Source of the DNA: a phage
Length of the DNA: 64,000 nucleotides
Assembly: GCA_012178725.1 (NCBI GenBank)
Contig: GCA_012178725.1_3030.1
Strand: one strand, 5' to 3'
Shown: positions 19,881-34,562 of the stretch, in pieces
Layout of the letters: every line of letters starts with the position of its first letter
Position numbering within the stretch: the first letter of the stretch is position 1
The notes under the pieces: model-generated
Seen by the model: only the letters and a program-made list of their open reading frames with translations
What the model was told of the DNA's origin: nothing
The model's database searches: none
Program-made: the position numbers and the translations under genes

Positions 19881-20137
19881 TAAATTTTCCTTGCTAAATC
19901 GCGAATTTGACCTACAGTATAGTCTTGAATATAAACTTTATTGATAGGCTCATCAATAAATTTTGCCATAGATTCAATGTCTTTTTGTATTTCTTCAAGA
20001 CTGTATACTATCTTTAAAGCTTTTTCGCGAATAGTAATATTTTCAGGACCCTGATTTTCTTTAATGACAGCTTTAACATTTGCCATAAGAGATTTAAATT
20101 GGTACCAACTTAATTCAATCATTAATAATCGCCTCAT
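19880..20137 (-). CDS. Hypothetical protein (paralog pair member)
   Basis: 85 aa; similar to adjacent 86-aa ORF (LEEIQKDIESMAKF...YIQDYTVGQIRDL vs LEEIERDLIALEFF...TINDYVLGEISYL). Confidence 0.5.
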   Translation of the reverse strand: MRRLLMIELSWYQFKSLMANVKAVIKENQGPENITIREKALKIVYSLEEIQKDIESMAKFIDEPINKVYIQDYTVGQIRDLARKI

Positions 20138-20375
20138 AAAGATAGCTAATTTCGCCTAAAACATAATCATTAATTGTAACAGTTTTCACTTCACCGCAAA
20201 AGAATTCTAACGCAATTAAATCTCGTTCAATTTCTTCTAATTGAAGCATCAACTTATTAGATTCAATTTTTACAGTTTCACGATTTTTACCATGAGCAAT
20301 TTCATAAATTTCGCTAATTTTATCCTGAAGAAAATAAAACTGATCTTTAGTTATTTCCACGAATAGCTTCCTCAA
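20115..20375 (-). CDS. Hypothetical protein (paralog pair member)
   Basis: 86 aa; see adjacent paralog. Confidence 0.5.
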   Translation of the reverse strand: MRKLFVEITKDQFYFLQDKISEIYEIAHGKNRETVKIESNKLMLQLEEIERDLIALEFFCGEVKTVTINDYVLGEISYLYEAIIND

Positions 20376-20414
20376 ATTTAATCAATAATTTACAGACACT
20401 TTCATCTAGTGTAA

Positions 20415-20606
20415 TTACCGTATCTGTATTACTGTGATATGATTGTTTTCAATTCGTTTAATTGCTAATATAGTATCACTTATAAGATAAAGCTTATGAA
20501 GGAGCTCAGCTCCTGTTACCATAACATTAAGATTATCTTGCTTATTAGTATGCTTCCTTATACCATCTATTAGACGATTTAAATATTTTGAATTGATGTT
20601 AATCAT
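20415..20606 (-). CDS. Hypothetical protein
   Basis: 63-aa ORF upstream of dda. Confidence 0.4.
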   Translation of the reverse strand: MININSKYLNRLIDGIRKHTNKQDNLNVMVTGAELLHKLYLISDTILAIKRIENNHITVIQIR

Positions 20607-26858: not shown

Positions 26859-27377
26859 TTAATAGCCTCGGTCTTGACGAGCGAAATTTTCAGCATTTTT
26901 CAGATAATAAAGTTTAAATATTTCTTCAGCTGACATTCCAAGAGCAATAAATTTATTCATGAAAAAGTGAAATTGGTCAATCAGTTCAAATTTAATTTCA
27001 AGCTGATCTTCAGGAGATAAGTCTTGAATTTTCTTGGATTGCATTTCAGAATAACGTTTCTTCCAAGGTTTCCATACGGCAGAAGCTTCTTTTTCACCAT
27101 TACTCATACCACCAAGAGAAGTATATAGCTCGCGAGTTTCATCTGCGATATAATCGTCTTGGTTTCGCAACCAAGCAAGAACTTCTCCTGCAGTTTCAAG
27201 TGAATCAGGATGACGATTTGTTTCTGGTTTATCATTAGCCAAACGAATCTGTAAATGCCGCTGCATATCAAGCATAACCTGCAGTGGGTCAATATTGTGC
27301 ATAATATTCTCAGCATATGCACGAGTTGCTTTATCAACACCTTCGATCAAATGAGCGCATTCATTAAAGTGAGCCAT
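26859..27377 (-). CDS. 56: dCTP pyrophosphatase gp56 (MazG-like)
   Basis: 172 aa from internal ATG (MAHFNECAHLIEGVDKA...); track ORF N-terminally extended; MotA-box middle promoter upstream. Confidence 0.88.
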   Translation of the reverse strand: MAHFNECAHLIEGVDKATRAYAENIMHNIDPLQVMLDMQRHLQIRLANDKPETNRHPDSLETAGEVLAWLRNQDDYIADETRELYTSLGGMSNGEKEASAVWKPWKKRYSEMQSKKIQDLSPEDQLEIKFELIDQFHFFMNKFIALGMSAEEIFKLYYLKNAENFARQDRGY

Positions 27378-27411
27378 TATTTTTCCTTTCAATTCATGGG
27401 TTAGTAGATTA

Positions 27412-27437
27412 ATTATACAATAAATATATAAAGCAAT
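27412..27437 (-). promoter_or_regulatory. Candidate middle promoter upstream of gene 56
   Basis: Minus strand TTGCTTTA - 11 nt - TATAAT. Confidence 0.45.
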
Positions 27438-27448
27438 AAGGAGGACAT

Positions 27449-27649
27449 ATGGTACAAAAATTAATGGCACTTGTTAATGCCATAAAAGGTAATAAAAAAC
27501 GTATAGCTTTTACTATTTCTGCTATGGTAGGAATTTTACTCTGGAACTTTATTCTATCACCTGTTGCAATTGCACATGGTATTAATATTCCAGTAGTTAC
27601 TCTTGATACATTTGTAGATTTAGCATTTGCTTTAGTTGGGTTGATTTAA
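27449..27649 (+). CDS. Small membrane protein (plus strand), 66 aa
   Basis: Strong SD AAGGAGGACAT-ATG; two hydrophobic segments; occupies the 56-61 interval. Confidence 0.45.
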   Translation: MVQKLMALVNAIKGNKKRIAFTISAMVGILLWNFILSPVAIAHGINIPVVTLDTFVDLAFALVGLI

Positions 27650-28674
27650 ATCTTAGCATATTTAGATAGCCGCATTTTAGCCATCAACCCCTGGGCAATA
27701 TTATTTTTCATATATTCCATAATTTGTTCAGGGGTTGCACCTTCCTTTCTAATCATATCATTAACATCTTTTGATTTCCAGGGAGATTTATCCCAAAACA
27801 TAACCCTTTCTCCTGCATCAACTAATTTAGTCATTCGCTTAATAGTGTCAGGATGACGAGGTTCATTATCTAAAACCCACACTCGTCTATCTTTAAATGG
27901 AACAACTTCTAGGTCTAATTGACCACCCGTAATAGCTATACCATTTTCAATAAAAAGTGAATCTATAGGTCCTTCTAGAACATATACATCACCATCTTTA
28001 ACTCGTTCGACTCCATAGATTTTTGTTGCTTCAGGATAAGCTTTGATGGTGATATATTTTTGGGGAGCATCTTTCTTTAATGCACGTCCTTGAAAAGACT
28101 CAGCTTTTCCATTAGCATTATAAATTGGAATAACAAGACGAGGCTCAGGTATTTCCTTTTTATATGTTCCCGGTGCTATACTATTAACTAATTTAGGCCA
28201 TTCGGTTGTAAACCAAAGATATTTCCATTTATCCTTTGGAATACAACGAGCTTTTACATATTTTATAATTGGATGGTCTTCCGCCAATTTATCTAATCTA
28301 ACACATGACAGAAGAGATTTAATTATTTTCTTCTCAGGTTGTTTAGGAAGTTCTTTAGGTTTTTCTACTGGACGACTTTTACCTTTTTCTTTTCTTATTT
28401 CAAAGATATACTCACGATATAAATCGGGTTCAAACTCCTTTAAATATATTCCGATTGGCGCATGATAGTTACAGTTATAACAATGAATATTTCCTTCATT
28501 ATTATCGCCATAATACCATCCACGAGCTTTATTCTGGTCGGTTTTTGAATCTCCACAAACAGGGCATCTAAACCGTAATTTAAAAGTTGAACTATTATTT
28601 ACTTGTGTGAATTTAGGTAAATGAGCTAATGCACGGTATGCAAACTCATTATCAATCCAAGGTATTGATGACAT
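27646..28674 (-). CDS. 61: DNA primase gp61
   Basis: 342 aa; zinc ribbon CPVC...CYNC plus TOPRIM-like region; T4 gp61 size. Confidence 0.95.
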   Translation of the reverse strand: MSSIPWIDNEFAYRALAHLPKFTQVNNSSTFKLRFRCPVCGDSKTDQNKARGWYYGDNNEGNIHCYNCNYHAPIGIYLKEFEPDLYREYIFEIRKEKGKSRPVEKPKELPKQPEKKIIKSLLSCVRLDKLAEDHPIIKYVKARCIPKDKWKYLWFTTEWPKLVNSIAPGTYKKEIPEPRLVIPIYNANGKAESFQGRALKKDAPQKYITIKAYPEATKIYGVERVKDGDVYVLEGPIDSLFIENGIAITGGQLDLEVVPFKDRRVWVLDNEPRHPDTIKRMTKLVDAGERVMFWDKSPWKSKDVNDMIRKEGATPEQIMEYMKNNIAQGLMAKMRLSKYAKI

Positions 28675-28676
28675 TT

Positions 28677-28841
28677 TTACTCTTCTTTTTCTTTAGATTC
28701 CTCTTTTTTCTTTTTAGGAATCTGTTCAGGACCTTTATTTACTACAGCGCCTGATGTTGTTCCAGTAGAGATATTTTCAGGATTACCACCTGAATCTCCA
28801 GCGACCATATCTTCTTTGATAAATTCTTTATATGTTTTCAT
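28677..28841 (-). CDS. Small Lys/Glu-rich protein (61.1-like), 54 aa
   Basis: Hand-translated MKTYKEFIKEDMVAGDSGGNPENISTGTTSGAVVNKGPEQIPKKKKEESKEKKR*; TAATATG junction. Confidence 0.4.
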   Translation of the reverse strand: MKTYKEFIKEDMVAGDSGGNPENISTGTTSGAVVNKGPEQIPKKKKEESKEKEE

Positions 28842-28842
28842 A

Positions 28843-28888
28843 TTAACCTCTATTCATAAAAGCATTAAAAATTTGGTCATCAATAGAT
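28843..28888. repeat. 46-bp direct repeat, copy 1 (3' end of the 118-aa ORF)
   Basis: ttaacctctattcataaaagcattaaaaatttggtcatcaataga; 45/46 identical to copy at 29201..29246. Confidence 0.8.
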
Positions 28889-29199
28889 GGTGCAGTAATA
28901 TTTTCTGCATCATTTAGCAAATCATTAATTTCATCAAATAGCATAACACATGTACCTTTATTTCCTGTAATTGTTACTGCGCAATTACGAACGTTTTCTT
29001 TATTAAATTTTAGGTTAATATTTTCGTAATGAAAATCCTTTAATGCTGAATATATTTTTAAAATAAAATTGTCTTTTACTACAATAAACCCAACCTCACT
29101 ATTAAAACGTGGTTCATGGAAACTGTAATAAACCTTTTCATCTATAAAATCGTATGAAATTTTTTCCATTTTTAAATATGAAAATTCAGAACTATACAT
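28843..29199 (-). CDS. Paralog of the C-terminal half of the adjacent 61.2-like protein
   Basis: 118 aa; shares F(I/V)VKDN motif and identical tail SIDDQIFNAFMNR with the 208-aa neighbour; 46-bp near-exact DNA repeat at the 3' end. Confidence 0.5.
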   Translation of the reverse strand: MYSSEFSYLKMEKISYDFIDEKVYYSFHEPRFNSEVGFIVVKDNFILKIYSALKDFHYENINLKFNKENVRNCAVTITGNKGTCVMLFDEINDLLNDAENITAPSIDDQIFNAFMNRG

Positions 29200-29200
29200 A

Positions 29201-29246
29201 TTAATCTCTATTCATAAAAGCATTAAAAATTTGGTCATCAATAGAA
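29201..29246. repeat. 46-bp direct repeat, copy 2 (3' end of the 61.2-like ORF)
   Basis: ttaatctctattcataaaagcattaaaaatttggtcatcaataga. Confidence 0.8.
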
Positions 29247-29827
29247 ACATTTACTTTAGACTGTTTTTCAGATGGCAATTCATATCCACATATTACAATT
29301 TTATGATCAATATCAAAATACACAGAAGCAATATGATTAATGATATTTTCAGTGAAGTCTAAATCGACATCAATATCTTTTTGACCAAAGCCCAAAGGAT
29401 AAATAATGCGAGTAATTCGATTATCTTTAACAAAGATTCCACCGACATACTCTGTACTGCGTTTAAAGTCTACACGCCGACGAAATGAAAAATATTCAGG
29501 CTCTTTATGAGCTCGGCTCATAGGACACAACGAATAACTAGAATAAGAGATGTCAAATCCTACGCCTTCGATATGAGCCAAAGTGTCATGATTAAACCAA
29601 TTATAATCGTACGCCAAATCCATTAGATTATAATATGTAAAAGGCACCGGATTAACATCATTAGTCACAAGCATGTAATTAGCAACTGCTATAATTTCAT
29701 TGTTTTTAACGAATACAAACCGTGATTGATGCGAATGACCTGGACCCGCGTTTTCACGATTAATGATATAACACTGGGCACCTTTATATTTGTATGTATC
29801 TTTGCACTTGTGCATTTGATAGAGCAT
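29201..29827 (-). CDS. Hypothetical protein (61.2-like)
   Basis: 208-aa ORF between sp and gene 61. Confidence 0.5.
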   Translation of the reverse strand: MLYQMHKCKDTYKYKGAQCYIINRENAGPGHSHQSRFVFVKNNEIIAVANYMLVTNDVNPVPFTYYNLMDLAYDYNWFNHDTLAHIEGVGFDISYSSYSLCPMSRAHKEPEYFSFRRRVDFKRSTEYVGGIFVKDNRITRIIYPLGFGQKDIDVDLDFTENIINHIASVYFDIDHKIVICGYELPSEKQSKVNVSIDDQIFNAFMNRD

Positions 29828-30120
29828 TATTCACCTACCACTTCAGCGATGATATTTTTGTTATTAAAGTTTTTATCGCAATACAGAACATAATTATACT
29901 GCATTACACCACCAGACTTAAGCTGTTTTTGCACTTCAGCTTTCATTTCAGGACGATCGCGCTTAACGATATTCATAATATCTGCTTCAATTTGAGTTTC
30001 AACCTCAGTCTGATCAGCAGTCATAGACCATTCGCACAAATCTTTATCATAACCTGCCATAGCAGGCTGAGCAGCACAAGAAGCTAAAGCAAAAATTGTA
30101 GCAAAAATAAATTTTTTCAT
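29827..30120 (-). CDS. sp: Spackle periplasmic protein Sp (61.3)
   Basis: 97 aa with signal peptide MKKFIFATIFALASCAAQPAMA; T4 Sp size and position. Confidence 0.85.
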   Translation of the reverse strand: MKKFIFATIFALASCAAQPAMAGYDKDLCEWSMTADQTEVETQIEADIMNIVKRDRPEMKAEVQKQLKSGGVMQYNYVLYCDKNFNNKNIIAEVVGE

Positions 30121-30180
30121 GATAATCTCCTCAGTAGTTTATGTTTATATAGTATCTCAATTTCCAACAAAAGTAAACAG

Positions 30181-30438
30181 CTATTTTAAAACTTCTGCGT
30201 AATCACATGTTACAAACTGTTTCTCTAGCTTAACGATCTTACGAAAGTATCTTTTACATTGACGAATCTGTCGCTTAGTAGGGCGCACAGCAAACTTAAT
30301 AAATTCCACTCGACCAAATGGAGGGCTTTCTTCTGATGGAATATCTAACACCAATTCCCACGTATCTGCAATAAGTGCTTTGAATTGCGTATTTTTCCTG
30401 ACGTTATACGGAGTAGGTTTAAATAAAACAATATGCAT
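30181..30438 (-). CDS. tifA: TifA-like protein (61.4; ToxIN inhibitor in T4)
   Basis: 85 aa from ATG one base after dmd stop (TAATATG, GAGGA SD); basic; position immediately downstream of dmd. Confidence 0.55.
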   Translation of the reverse strand: MHIVLFKPTPYNVRKNTQFKALIADTWELVLDIPSEESPPFGRVEFIKFAVRPTKRQIRQCKRYFRKIVKLEKQFVTCDYAEVLK

Positions 30439-30439
30439 A

Positions 30440-30622
30440 TTATCCTCGGCAATCCACTTCACATACTTTCTTGTCATCAATGAAAGCTTTAACTAATGCT
30501 TTATTAACTTCAGCATACTGAGTAGTAGCCCATTGAACGTCATCTTTCATCATTGTGATTTCTTTAGTAAACATGCTTTCATTCTTAAACCATCCCATAA
30601 AAACTACCTTTACCAATTCCAT
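30440..30622 (-). CDS. dmd: Dmd antitoxin (RnlA/LsoA inhibitor)
   Basis: 60 aa, matches remembered T4 Dmd (MELVKVVFMGWFKNESMFTKEITMMKDDVQWATTQY...). Confidence 0.85.
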   Translation of the reverse strand: MELVKVVFMGWFKNESMFTKEITMMKDDVQWATTQYAEVNKALVKAFIDDKKVCEVDCRG

Positions 30623-30680
30623 AACAATCTCCTCATTTAACCAACAAGACTACTATACCATAGTCTCGTCAGCTTGTAAA

Positions 30681-32108
30681 CTAAAATTTTAATTCATTCG
30701 CCAAAGCATCTAACTGAGCTCGAGTGGATTCATTTCTTTGATAGCGATTCTGCTCAGCCTGAATCTGTTGTGAACCTGCTACTTCGTTCACTTCAGTTGG
30801 AGTAGAATCTTGTTCAATTTCTACCCATTTCTGATTTCCCTTTTGAACACCCATCAAAAACTTATTCCACTTATTCTTATCGCCATATCGTGATTTGATT
30901 TGCTTAATGAGTTGTTGTTCAGCAGCTGCTAGCTCCTCGGTTTCAATGACCGCAAGCATAAAATCGGCTGTTGCTGGAAGACCGGCAGATTCTGCAATAT
31001 CGCTCATGTTAACATCAGAAGAGTCCCAAGCTTGTTTACCGACCTGTGCTGCAGTCCAAAGAACAGTTTCGGTTTCAACAGCCAGAGCACGCAATTCCTC
31101 TGCAATAGCTTTAACAGTTGTGTAACTATTTTCTGAATAAACTCGGATGCGACAAGATTTACAAATACCCAGATAATCTACAATAATGATTGTTGGAACA
31201 AAATTCTTCTTGAGCTTCAATTCATTCAAGAGAGACCTGAATGTATTAGCGTCTGCTCCACCAGTAGGATACTGTTTAACGATTAAACGACCAAGAGTAG
31301 ATTTCTCACGCCATTTTTCCATTTTTCCTTTATACTCAGCGTAAGAAATATGCCCATCATCAATGTCATCAAGAGAAACATCAAGCATATTAGCATCAAT
31401 ACGCTTAGCACAGACTTCTTCTGCCATTTCCATGGAAATGTAAAGAACATTATGTCCGAGCTGCAAATAATCTGCTGCCAATGAACACAGACCTAATGAC
31501 TTACCAACGTTAACGCCAGCCATTAAAACGTTCAGTGTTCCAGTCTCAGCTCCGCCTTTAGTAATTTTATTTAGAATTCTGAGTTTAAATGGAACTTTAC
31601 GAGCTTTATTCATATAAGATAGCCAGCGTGCTTCGTAGTCATCCATCCAATCATGACCAACGTAGCTATCAAATGAAATTGATAATGCTTGGCGCATGAT
31701 GTCAGGAATAGCACCAACATCCGGCATTTTCTTATTTCGTTTTTCCGGAGGAAGCTCAGCATTAGTTTGAATTTCGATTATTTTAGACGTAGCATTAAAC
31801 ATCGCCCTTTGCTGAACATATTTTTCTGTTTCTTTTACTAACCAGCTGTGGTCTTCTGGAGAATCAGCCAGTTTTGAAATAAGTGTTTTTACACCAGAAT
31901 ATTCTGTTTCAGTAAATGAACTATTTTCTAATGCAACATTTAACGCATTAATAGATGGAACGCTATGGTACTCATTAACATGAGATTTAATTAATTTGAA
32001 TGTATTTTTAGCTGGACCACTTTCAAAATATTCTGAATCCATATATGGCCAAACTTTTGAAAAATAAGCTTGATCAAATATAAGATGAGAAAGAATAATT
32101 TCTACCAC
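30681..32108 (-). CDS. 41: Replicative DNA helicase gp41 (DnaB family)
   Basis: 475 aa; Walker A GVNVGKS; T4 gp41 size. Confidence 0.95.
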   Translation of the reverse strand: MVEIILSHLIFDQAYFSKVWPYMDSEYFESGPAKNTFKLIKSHVNEYHSVPSINALNVALENSSFTETEYSGVKTLISKLADSPEDHSWLVKETEKYVQQRAMFNATSKIIEIQTNAELPPEKRNKKMPDVGAIPDIMRQALSISFDSYVGHDWMDDYEARWLSYMNKARKVPFKLRILNKITKGGAETGTLNVLMAGVNVGKSLGLCSLAADYLQLGHNVLYISMEMAEEVCAKRIDANMLDVSLDDIDDGHISYAEYKGKMEKWREKSTLGRLIVKQYPTGGADANTFRSLLNELKLKKNFVPTIIIVDYLGICKSCRIRVYSENSYTTVKAIAEELRALAVETETVLWTAAQVGKQAWDSSDVNMSDIAESAGLPATADFMLAVIETEELAAAEQQLIKQIKSRYGDKNKWNKFLMGVQKGNQKWVEIEQDSTPTEVNEVAGSQQIQAEQNRYQRNESTRAQLDALANELKF

Positions 32109-32117
32109 ACTTACTCC

Positions 32118-32480
32118 TTAAAAGAATTTAAATTTTTTCTTTGACCTTTTATTAAATGCATCTTGCAGTTGCATTGTAATACATTTTTCTACATGAGGAG
32201 CTAACTCAGCTTTTCTTTCTTGGTCAAGAACAGCAAAGTCCATTACGACTTTTCCATCAACCCAATCTAATTTTGTCACATACACAATGTGTGTAGAACC
32301 ATCTTCTAGTTTAATGACAATCTCCTGGATAACATTTTCCATGGCAGATTTAATTATCTTAAGAGATTCATTAAAAAGACGTTCTTTTCTTTCTTCTTCC
32401 CCCTCCGAAGAGGGGGATTCATCGATAATTTCTAGATCTAAATCTAAATCATCTTTATTCATTAAATTCTTCCATATCAC
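32118..32480 (-). CDS. 40: gp40 head vertex assembly chaperone (positional)
   Basis: 120-aa ORF between uvsX and 41; overlaps uvsX 3' end. Confidence 0.6.
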   Translation of the reverse strand: MIWKNLMNKDDLDLDLEIIDESPSSEGEEERKERLFNESLKIIKSAMENVIQEIVIKLEDGSTHIVYVTKLDWVDGKVVMDFAVLDQERKAELAPHVEKCITMQLQDAFNKRSKKKFKFF

Positions 32481-33636
32481 TTAACTGTTCGAGGTCAGTT
32501 TCTAAATCAGCAGCTGATTTACTTTTACTTTCTGGAGATTTAAATTTTTCAACCTTTGAGTTAATCAATTCATCAACTTCAGCTTCAACAATTTCATTAC
32601 TATCAATAGCACCTAACTGATAAGCACGTTTAATAGCATCTCGGAATGGTTGATGCTTAAATAAAGGACCCCAGAATGTAGTGCAGTTGGTATCTTTTGC
32701 ACGCCAAGATTTTTCTTCGCGAATCATCTCGCCGGTTTCTTCGTCAAGAAATTCACGAGCATACCAACCATTCTTAGGTTTTACTACAAATCCTAATTCT
32801 AGAGCCATATCTAACAATCCAGAATAAGGATCGATACCACCGTCAAATTTAACATCAATAAAGAATTTACTTTTTTCTTTAACGGTACGAGATTTTTCTA
32901 CATTTAGAACAAATTGATACCCTTGAAGATCAGAACCATCTTTAATCTGACGCTTACCGATAATGAATACGGTATCAGCCGAATACATTACGCCTGTACC
33001 ACCTGTCATCACGGTTTTACTAAACATTTCAATTGTTTCAATTGTATGGTTAACCGCAACACATGGAATATTTTTAATGCTAAAGTAAGGAGTAACAATA
33101 CGGAATAATGACTTCAGTGATTTAGCACGAGTCATATCTGCCACAGATTTTTCATTCAAGGCATCTTCCGTTTCTTTCTTAGAAGCCATATTACCAATTG
33201 AGTCGATGAATACTATAACCTTTTCACCACGCTCAATAGCTTCAAGCTGATTCACCATATCAATTTTCAGCTGTTCAACTGATTGAATTGGCGTATGAAT
33301 TACACGTTCCGGGTCAACTCCCATGGATCGCAAATAAGCTGGAGTAATACCAAATTCGCTATCATAGAATAGACAAACTGCGTCAGGATATTTGTTCAAA
33401 TATGCCGCAACCATAGTCAAAGACATATTTGATTTAAAGTGTTTAGAAGGCCCTGCGAAAATAGTTAAACCAGACTGCATACCGCCATCAATCGCACCAG
33501 AAATAGCAATATTAAGCATTGGGATTTTTGTACGGATTACATCCTTTTCATTAAAGAATTTAGATGTAGTCAGTTCAGCAGTCATTTTAGAAGTGGAAGC
33601 TTTAATCAAACGGGATTTTAAATCTGCAATAGACAT
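32455..33636 (-). CDS. uvsX: UvsX recombinase (RecA-like)
   Basis: 393 aa; RecA fold motifs (GPSKHFKS Walker A); N-terminus resembles T4 UvsX. Confidence 0.95.
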   Translation of the reverse strand: MSIADLKSRLIKASTSKMTAELTTSKFFNEKDVIRTKIPMLNIAISGAIDGGMQSGLTIFAGPSKHFKSNMSLTMVAAYLNKYPDAVCLFYDSEFGITPAYLRSMGVDPERVIHTPIQSVEQLKIDMVNQLEAIERGEKVIVFIDSIGNMASKKETEDALNEKSVADMTRAKSLKSLFRIVTPYFSIKNIPCVAVNHTIETIEMFSKTVMTGGTGVMYSADTVFIIGKRQIKDGSDLQGYQFVLNVEKSRTVKEKSKFFIDVKFDGGIDPYSGLLDMALELGFVVKPKNGWYAREFLDEETGEMIREEKSWRAKDTNCTTFWGPLFKHQPFRDAIKRAYQLGAIDSNEIVEAEVDELINSKVEKFKSPESKSKSAADLETDLEQLSDMEEFNE

Positions 33637-33713: not shown

Positions 33714-34562
33714 TTAATCAACTGCTATTGGATGAATAGCATTAAACTTATGAAATGCTTCTGATTTTTCTTTACGAGAAACACACATGCGAAGAACCTT
33801 TAATGGCTCGTCTTCTTCACCCAACGATTTTCGTTTTTCAATATTAGAAGTTTTCCAACGAGCTTGCTCTGGAAACTCTCTATTGATTTGCTCAAGCGCT
33901 CTATTATGTTTAGAATTACTACGAATTGAACTGCACCCGCCAGGAGCTTGTGCTTTTCCAGATACAACCAGATATTTGAACAAGGCCAAATGCGGATAAC
34001 CTTGATTAATTAAATTGAGAAATGCATACATATCTTCGCATAAATCAATTTTTCCATACCCAATTTGTTCTGTCGTAAGTTTTCCGAGATCATACCATGT
34101 ATTCGTGAATCCATATGAATTTTCACGATAATTACCCCAAGATGAAGTAATTTTAAAAATAGGTAGACGAGCATGGCCATGATAATACCCACAATCCATG
34201 GCATCCTCAACATATTGAATCAATTCATAGAACTGTTCACGAGTCAATTGATTGACTTTATCCACACAACGACGATCATCTCTTTTTCGCATTGAACTCA
34301 TACGAATAGTAGTATCATCGTCAATCATCCAGATTCGTTGACCTGCATACATATCAGTAATTGCTTTACGAGTACCAGCAATTCCATTTACATCATCAGG
34401 AATAGTTATAATTTTAGCTCTAGACCCATAGGCATCATAATAAGCTTTTTCTTCGTGTTCACGCACTACAATATGGGGTTCATAATCAGTCGGAAACATA
34501 TCAAGGGCAGAAACTGCCCCAACACGCTGATAACTTGGAATTACGAATTGAATCATTTCCAC
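33714..34562 (-). CDS. Putative hydroxymethylcytosine-DNA glycosyltransferase (DxD-containing, GT-A-like) at the beta-gt position
   Basis: 282 aa; ...RIWMIDDDTTIRM... DxD motif; sits between uvsX and 42 where T4 has the 351-aa beta-gt. Confidence 0.5.
   Translation of the reverse strand: MEMIQFVIPSYQRVGAVSALDMFPTDYEPHIVVREHEEKAYYDAYGSRAKIITIPDDVNGIAGTRKAITDMYAGQRIWMIDDDTTIRMSSMRKRDDRRCVDKVNQLTREQFYELIQYVEDAMDCGYYHGHARLPIFKITSSWGNYRENSYGFTNTWYDLGKLTTEQIGYGKIDLCEDMYAFLNLINQGYPHLALFKYLVVSGKAQAPGGCSSIRSNSKHNRALEQINREFPEQARWKTSNIEKRKSLGEEDEPLKVLRMCVSRKEKSEAFHKFNAIHPIAVD

Follow-up and report, generated by a model that had tools for sequence, protein, structure and literature searches.

Gene content and organization

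The window analysed here is a 64,000-nucleotide stretch of phage DNA (assembly GCA_012178725.1, contig GCA_012178725.1_3030.1), within which two small genes lie next to each other on the minus strand: a 60-aa ORF corresponding to dmd and, one nucleotide further on, an 85-aa ORF corresponding to tifA (Table 1). The order of genes on this strand is that of T4, running uvsX, 40, 41, dmd, tifA, sp, 61.2, the 118-aa ORF (in parentheses, as it were, being absent from T4), 61.1 and 61. An earlier reading of the letters alone (the first-pass annotation) had placed the pair beside sp and a duplicated 61.2-like module, and these neighbors are indeed present, the 118-aa ORF being 33% identical to the C-terminal half of AdfA (residues 109-207), with the terminal motif SIDDQIFNAFMNR common to both. 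This ORF has its own PHROG (4122, unknown function), occurs in 333 phage records and is annotated in phage RB18 as having "some similarity to gp61.2"; its position makes it a candidate for an additional gene directed against toxin-antitoxin (TA) systems.

Table 1. Genes and expression signals around dmd and tifA, listed in the direction of transcription.
Feature	Coordinates	Strand	Description
uvsX	32455-33636	-	
Gene 41 (helicase)	30681-32108	-	dmd directly downstream, as in T4
Early-type sigma-70 promoter-like site	30652-30680	-	TTTACA, 17-nt spacer, TATAGT, TG (extended -10)
dmd Shine-Dalgarno sequence	30629-30634	-	GAGGAG, 6 nt before the ATG; identical in T4
dmd (T4 gene 61.5)	30440-30622	-	60 aa; stop TAA at 30442-30440
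dmd-tifA junction	30436-30447	-	GAGGA, TAA, single T (30439), ATG; read from the sequence
tifA (T4 gene 61.4)	30181-30438	-	85 aa plus TAG stop; ATG at 30438-30436
Candidate promoter between tifA and sp	30149-30177	-	TTTACT, 17-nt spacer, TACTAT; identical in T4
sp (spackle, 61.3)	29827-30120	-	Next gene after tifA; Pfam T4_Spackle, E=1.6e-44
adfA (61.2), anti-DarT factor A	29201-29827	-	Pfam AdfA, E=3.1e-136
AdfA-like ORF	28843-29199	-	118 aa; Pfam AdfA, E=2.3e-7; between 61.1 and adfA
61.1	28677-28841	-	
Gene 61 (primase)	27646-28674	-	

The surroundings differ from those of T4 in the extra AdfA-like ORF, in lacking dam and, judging by RB18, in lacking segA and carrying a ggt of the T2/T6 type. 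T4 has dam between genes 56 and 61, whereas no dam was found in the corresponding region of the window (26859-27470 on the minus strand and 27449-27649 on the plus strand). The latter interval holds a hydrophobic 66-aa ORF on the opposite strand, labelled RB69ORF029w-like in RB18 and with no Pfam match. On the other side of the locus, a 282-aa ORF (33714-34562, minus strand) matches in position the ggt of RB18, where uvsX is directly followed by a beta-glucosyl-HMC-alpha-glucosyltransferase gene (ggt) of the T2/T6 type; T4 has b-gt and the homing endonuclease gene segA instead. The arrangement hints at DNA glucosylation of the T2/T6 kind, with segA missing from the site next to uvsX.

Identity of the two genes

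The acidic, 60-aa product is identical to T4 Dmd at all 60 residues, with no difference at the protein level, and is matched by the Pfam family Dmd (PF17587, E=1.6e-46, 156.9 bits against a cut-off of 27, residues 1-60 of 60), by PHROG 2102 "Dmd" (E=3e-39) and by the 60-residue chain 5hy3_B of the PDB, "Antitoxin Dmd" (residues 1-60, E=1.8e-37). The 85-aa product shares 83 of its 85 residues with T4 gp61.4 (E=1e-63), the sole differences being A35S and I83V, and belongs to PHROG 2375 (E=5e-38) and to Pfam PF23945/DUF7279 (E=2.6e-20, 72.5 bits against a cut-off of 24.5). It is basic (pI 9.83), with 17 K+R against 9 D+E and nine of the K/R residues within positions 52-70. A sequence search of the PDB with TifA gave no match at E<=1. 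A single-sequence AlphaFold2 model, unreliable in itself (mean pLDDT 44.3, pTM 0.34), placed strands at residues 2-6, 27-32 and 44-49 and a helix at 55-70, an order that equals the expected beta-beta-beta-helix.

The first-pass annotation had named the 60-aa ORF as T4 Dmd and the 85-aa ORF as T4 61.4, since renamed tifA, and had proposed alignment to gp61.4/TifA as the check on the second; the identities given above bear out both names, the renaming is found in the literature (Srikant, Guegler and Laub, eLife 2022, PMC9391042), and the coordinates, the ORF lengths and the basic nature of the 85-aa product in that annotation were exact.

At the nucleotide level, dmd differs from the T4 gene at two positions, both synonymous. 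The tifA gene differs by nine synonymous changes, two non-synonymous changes and a stop codon changed from TAA to TAG. All nine synonymous changes fall in codons 51-71, which encode the basic helix, and leave its amino acids unaltered, which points to selection on tifA. The pattern indicates two genuine genes under purifying selection, as opposed to a chance pair of ORFs. Every sequence-level feature by which the Dmd and TifA families are defined, and which could be tested, was found, and the biochemical features may be carried over through identity to the experimentally studied proteins. The region is, with very little doubt, the dmd-tifA operon already described, here carried by a T4-like phage (Tequatrovirus).

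Published functions and proposed mechanism

The functional account below draws on work with T4 and RB69 for co-transcription, the protein nature of TifA, its binding of ToxN and RNA, and the inhibition of RnlA and LsoA by Dmd, and on the window for the ORFs, their junction, near-identity to the T4 proteins, retention of functional residues, purifying selection and the promoter-like site.

In T4, dmd and 61.4 form a two-gene locus under an early promoter upstream of dmd (Srikant et al., 2022). Dmd inhibits the RNase toxins RnlA and LsoA (Otsuka and Yonesaki, 2012, as cited in Srikant et al., 2022). Induction of tifA alone abolishes toxIN defence and restores T4 plaquing on +toxIN cells, dmd making no contribution, and native tifA overcomes chromosomal toxIN (Srikant et al., 2022). 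The same study found that deletion of the tifA ATG kills the activity and that a recoded gene with 55 of its 258 nt changed still works, from which it follows that tifA acts through its protein product. TifA can bind ToxN as well as RNA, and it captures ToxN in a large ribonucleoprotein complex, RNA being bound through the basic C-terminal helix, in which a P53-T54 cap is conserved and the K55A R56A R59A variant is deficient in RNA binding (Guegler et al., NAR 2023, PMC10853763).

Applied to the window, dmd and tifA would be transcribed soon after infection from an early promoter that directly follows gene 41. Dmd would then bind and inhibit RnlA and LsoA, the toxins of the type II TA systems rnlAB and lsoAB of the host, a role suggested by its complete identity to the characterized protein. 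The basic TifA, at 98% identity to its T4 counterpart, is likewise predicted to bind the ToxN endoribonuclease of type III toxIN systems and, by also binding RNA through its basic C-terminal helix, to hold ToxN in an inactive ribonucleoprotein in which it could no longer cut phage transcripts.

Junction and expression signals

The Shine-Dalgarno sequence of tifA (GAGGA, 30447-30443) lies in dmd codons 59-60 (CGA GGA), 4 nt before the tifA ATG. The junction GAGGA-TAA-T-ATG is identical in T4 and RB18, and RB7 and the Mosigvirus mar005P1 likewise have a gap of 1 nt. The description in the first-pass annotation of a 1-nt junction (TAATATG), with the Shine-Dalgarno sequence inside the 3' end of dmd, thus corresponds to what can be read from the sequence, and T4 has the same.

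Upstream of dmd, the promoter-like site (30680-30652) begins right after the stop codon of gene 41, scores 10/12 with TG in a consensus scan, and has hexamers identical to those of T4. The scan alone is weak evidence, since it found five sites in the 1.2-kb region where shuffled sequence would give 4.4, but as a consensus match the site would agree with the published early promoter. The candidate promoter between tifA and sp scores 8/12 against the consensus, which is under the scan threshold, and may be the promoter downstream of tifA that is mentioned by Srikant et al. (2022). A scan of 29700-30900 for intrinsic terminators found none, hence none between tifA and sp.

The ribosome-binding regions of sp (30115-30133) and dmd (30617-30635) form a direct repeat with 16 of 19 positions matching, the copies lying 502 nt apart and sharing an exact 10-nt core, TGAGGAGATT on the minus strand. 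The repeat brackets dmd-tifA together with the downstream promoter-like site. It is the kind of microhomology that has been reported for segmental amplification of dmd-tifA, but chance alone would yield about 0.7 such 10-mers per 1.2 kb; the text of Srikant et al. (2022) does not give the sequences of the amplification microhomologies for comparison.

Translational coupling

Beyond the published description, the first-pass annotation added only one element, which is that the two genes are translationally coupled. In its obligatory form, this would mean that translation of tifA needs ribosomes ending at the dmd stop codon, so that TifA is tied to Dmd output and the two genes act as one regulated unit. 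A 1-nt junction in itself only permits coupling. The gap and the Shine-Dalgarno sequence in dmd are kept in T4, RB18, RB7 and mar005P1, despite a TifA identity of only about 56% in Mosigvirus, and evolution experiments with T4 co-amplified dmd with tifA in all populations, in one of them without the upstream promoter (Srikant et al., 2022). Even where the upstream gene is not dmd, in Dhakavirus and Kanagawavirus, tifA still abuts an upstream ORF, with a spacing of 0 nt or an ATGA overlap.

These same two genera, on the other hand, show that the partnership with dmd itself is not constant. In Dhakavirus, 141 nt separate dmd from tifA, a spacing annotated in phage IME281 as a 46-aa ORF (L003, 760-900), and in the Kanagawavirus phage ZX14, the tifA homologue overlaps another upstream gene, with no dmd annotated adjoining it in the stretch examined. 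In these mixed comparative data, the feature that is kept is tight packing against whichever gene lies upstream, and not a link between dmd and tifA. Tight junctions are also the default in T4: among 85 adjacent same-strand gene pairs surveyed in the first 50 kb of its genome, 42 are separated by 2 nt or less or overlap, and in seven the gap is exactly 1 nt. In the window, the junctions of the 118-aa ORF with 61.1 and with 61.2 are 1 nt each as well.

The sequence likewise gives no sign that the tifA start depends on upstream translation, as tifA has a good Shine-Dalgarno sequence of its own with a 4-nt spacer, and folding of the 101 nt around the junction (-14.5 kcal/mol) gave z=0.35 against shuffles, which argues against a structure that upstream translation would be needed to open. 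TifA is, moreover, active when expressed from a plasmid without dmd (Srikant et al., 2022), and a literature search on translational coupling of dmd and 61.4 returned nothing relevant. Coupling as originally drawn is thus not supported, and its obligatory form is considered rather unlikely.

Some termination-reinitiation at the junction is plausible, in that TAA-T-ATG may let some of the ribosomes finishing dmd restart on tifA. A more specific version, in which the dosage of TifA is set in part by translation of dmd in cis, by termination-reinitiation across the conserved 1-nt junction, is unlikely. If true, it would account for the co-amplification of dmd with tifA in all evolved T4 lines, the one without the upstream promoter among them, and it would mean that the weak native dosage of TifA is set by translation of Dmd. 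The GAGGA sequence probably supports independent initiation on tifA, so that the junction would reflect the compact packing typical of T4 and not a special regulatory device. The evidence, then, does not favor a special mechanism.

Alternative start codon and RNA-level activity

Upstream of the ATG at 30438, the frame of tifA stays open over another 57 nt and offers a TTG at -42, an ATG at -39 and a GTG at -24, and the same open upstream stretch is seen in T4, RB7 and mar005P1. The downstream ORF might accordingly start at the upstream in-frame ATG or TTG and encode 98-99 aa, overlapping the 3' end of dmd. None of the TTG, ATG and GTG candidates is preceded by an SD-like sequence, however, and TifA homologues align from M1; in the Dhakavirus homologues, the open frame reaches no further than 3 nt upstream of the ATG, and in T4, deletion of the annotated ATG abolishes tifA function (Srikant et al., 2022). 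A longer product is thus very improbable, and the 99-aa ORF called from the TTG was rejected for its lack of a Shine-Dalgarno sequence and its closure in Dhakavirus.

As the native antitoxin of ToxN is a repetitive RNA (Srikant et al., 2022), an action at the RNA level can also be conceived, with the locus supplying a toxI-like pseudo-antitoxin RNA as in escape mutants of the Pectobacterium phage PhiTE. No point in support of this was found for the dmd-tifA locus. The interval 29500-31000 is free of tandem repeats, the complete window matched no family when scanned against Rfam, ARAGORN reported no tRNA or tmRNA, and folding of the junction and of the tifA-sp spacer (z=1.02) was no better than that of shuffles. 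The T4 experiments described above, in which the recoded gene works and the gene without its ATG does not, already refute it for T4, leaving this reading with a negligible probability. Both a toxI mimic and a structured coupling element were rejected for want of repeats, Rfam matches or significant structure, and a TifA protein of 85 aa started at the annotated ATG is retained.

The TifA allele

The potency of TifA is set by residue 41 in its variable loop, F41 of T4 being weak and F41S and F41H stronger (Guegler et al., 2023). The TifA of the window keeps F41, along with the P53-T54 cap, K55, R56 and R59, within a motif R52-P53-T54-K55-R56-Q57-I58-R59 of which PTKRQ(I/M)R is kept in seven of the seven homologues compared. 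By its F41, it is a T4-type, low-potency allele, and this phage, like T4, would probably defeat toxIN at chromosomal but not at plasmid level.

The allele is an uncommon one: a full-length identity of 99% or more, which at 85 aa means an identical protein, is reached by only 3 of 658 records. A 31-aa loop peptide with S35 was found exactly in 18 of 580 records, and a form with A35 and S41 in two; these counts were taken from tblastn with 31-aa peptides, a pattern scan of codons 35 and 41 in IMG/VR having yielded one contig.

It could be asked whether S35 and V83 give this TifA a target range or potency other than that of T4, being tuned for instance to another ToxN homologue, or whether it acts mainly as a general RNA-binding protein in this phage. 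The variable loop (residues 35-50), predicted by AlphaFold models to lie at the interface with ToxN, begins with residue 35, one substitution in this loop, at residue 41, shifts potency, and TifA homologues show specificity for ToxN, some inhibiting none of the ToxN proteins tested (Guegler et al., 2023). The S35 form of the loop is also in the minority. The changes from A to S and from I to V are conservative, however, neither F41 nor any of the mapped RNA-binding residues is altered, and the TifA proteins of T2 and T6, which are more than 96% identical to that of T4, are active and behave as T4 TifA does (Srikant et al., 2022; Guegler et al., 2023). An altered activity is accordingly regarded as improbable, and T4-like behavior is the preferred reading. 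It is conceivable, if unlikely, that this minority allele, or the 118-aa AdfA-like ORF, extends the anti-TA repertoire of the phage beyond that of T4.

Distribution and significance

At a DNA identity of at least 80%, the locus occurs in 503 phage records, and a TifA homologue in 658. The operon, its promoter arrangement, the functions of both genes and the idea of an anti-TA island are all already published for T4 and its relatives, and the feature is a correct identification of a known, ordinary system. Its value is thus practical and lies in annotation, with little to offer as a discovery given that over 500 sequenced phages have a near-identical copy. In nearly every database record sampled, the 85-aa gene is labelled "hypothetical protein", and Pfam keeps the family as DUF7279, so that the gene can now be relabelled tifA. 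The F41 allele also predicts that the phage is, like T4, sensitive to toxIN at high expression; this bears on predicting the host range of therapeutic T4-like phages.

Comparison with other phages

Over a 7-kb segment, CrRp10 and RB18 match best, with an identity of about 98%. T4 itself is 99% identical to the window in DNA over 621 nt (Dmd 100%, TifA 98%) and agrees with it in gene order, in the lengths of the two products, in the promoter hexamers, in both Shine-Dalgarno sequences and in the TAA-T-ATG junction. In the T4 reference, 61.4 is located at 20112-20369 and dmd at 20371-20553, leaving the same gap of 1 nt. Homologues of tifA adjoin dmd in T2, T6 and RB69 as well (Srikant et al., 2022).

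The C-terminal extension of TifA varies within the genus, as shown by RB7 (Tequatrovirus RB3), whose TifA (L006, 901-1143) is 80 aa long and has another tail from residue 75 (...KQLLMLVK), and by tblastn matches that cover residues 1-76 and stop there, which reveal an RB7-like pattern in several other phages. The TifA of RB69 and Mosigvirus is more distant, being about 56% identical and 70 aa long without the C-terminal extension, and has H41 in place of F41; it is the more potent inhibitor of ToxN. It keeps the basic-helix motif PTKRQIRQ and follows dmd directly, in mar005P1 with the 1-nt junction too.

The region that includes 61.2/adfA has been proposed as a possible "anti-TA island" (Srikant et al., 2022), and the window agrees with T4 in having adfA as the second gene after tifA. 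Related phages carry further small ORFs at this place: one of 105 aa between gene 41 and dmd in Mosigvirus and Dhakavirus (L002, 394-711; L003, 238-555), the one of 46 aa between dmd and tifA in Dhakavirus IME281, and one of 84 aa between tifA and sp in RB7 (L006, 1207-1461). These have no significant match in Pfam, the best being a sub-threshold one to Arr-ms (E=0.005), and they are further candidates for the proposed island.
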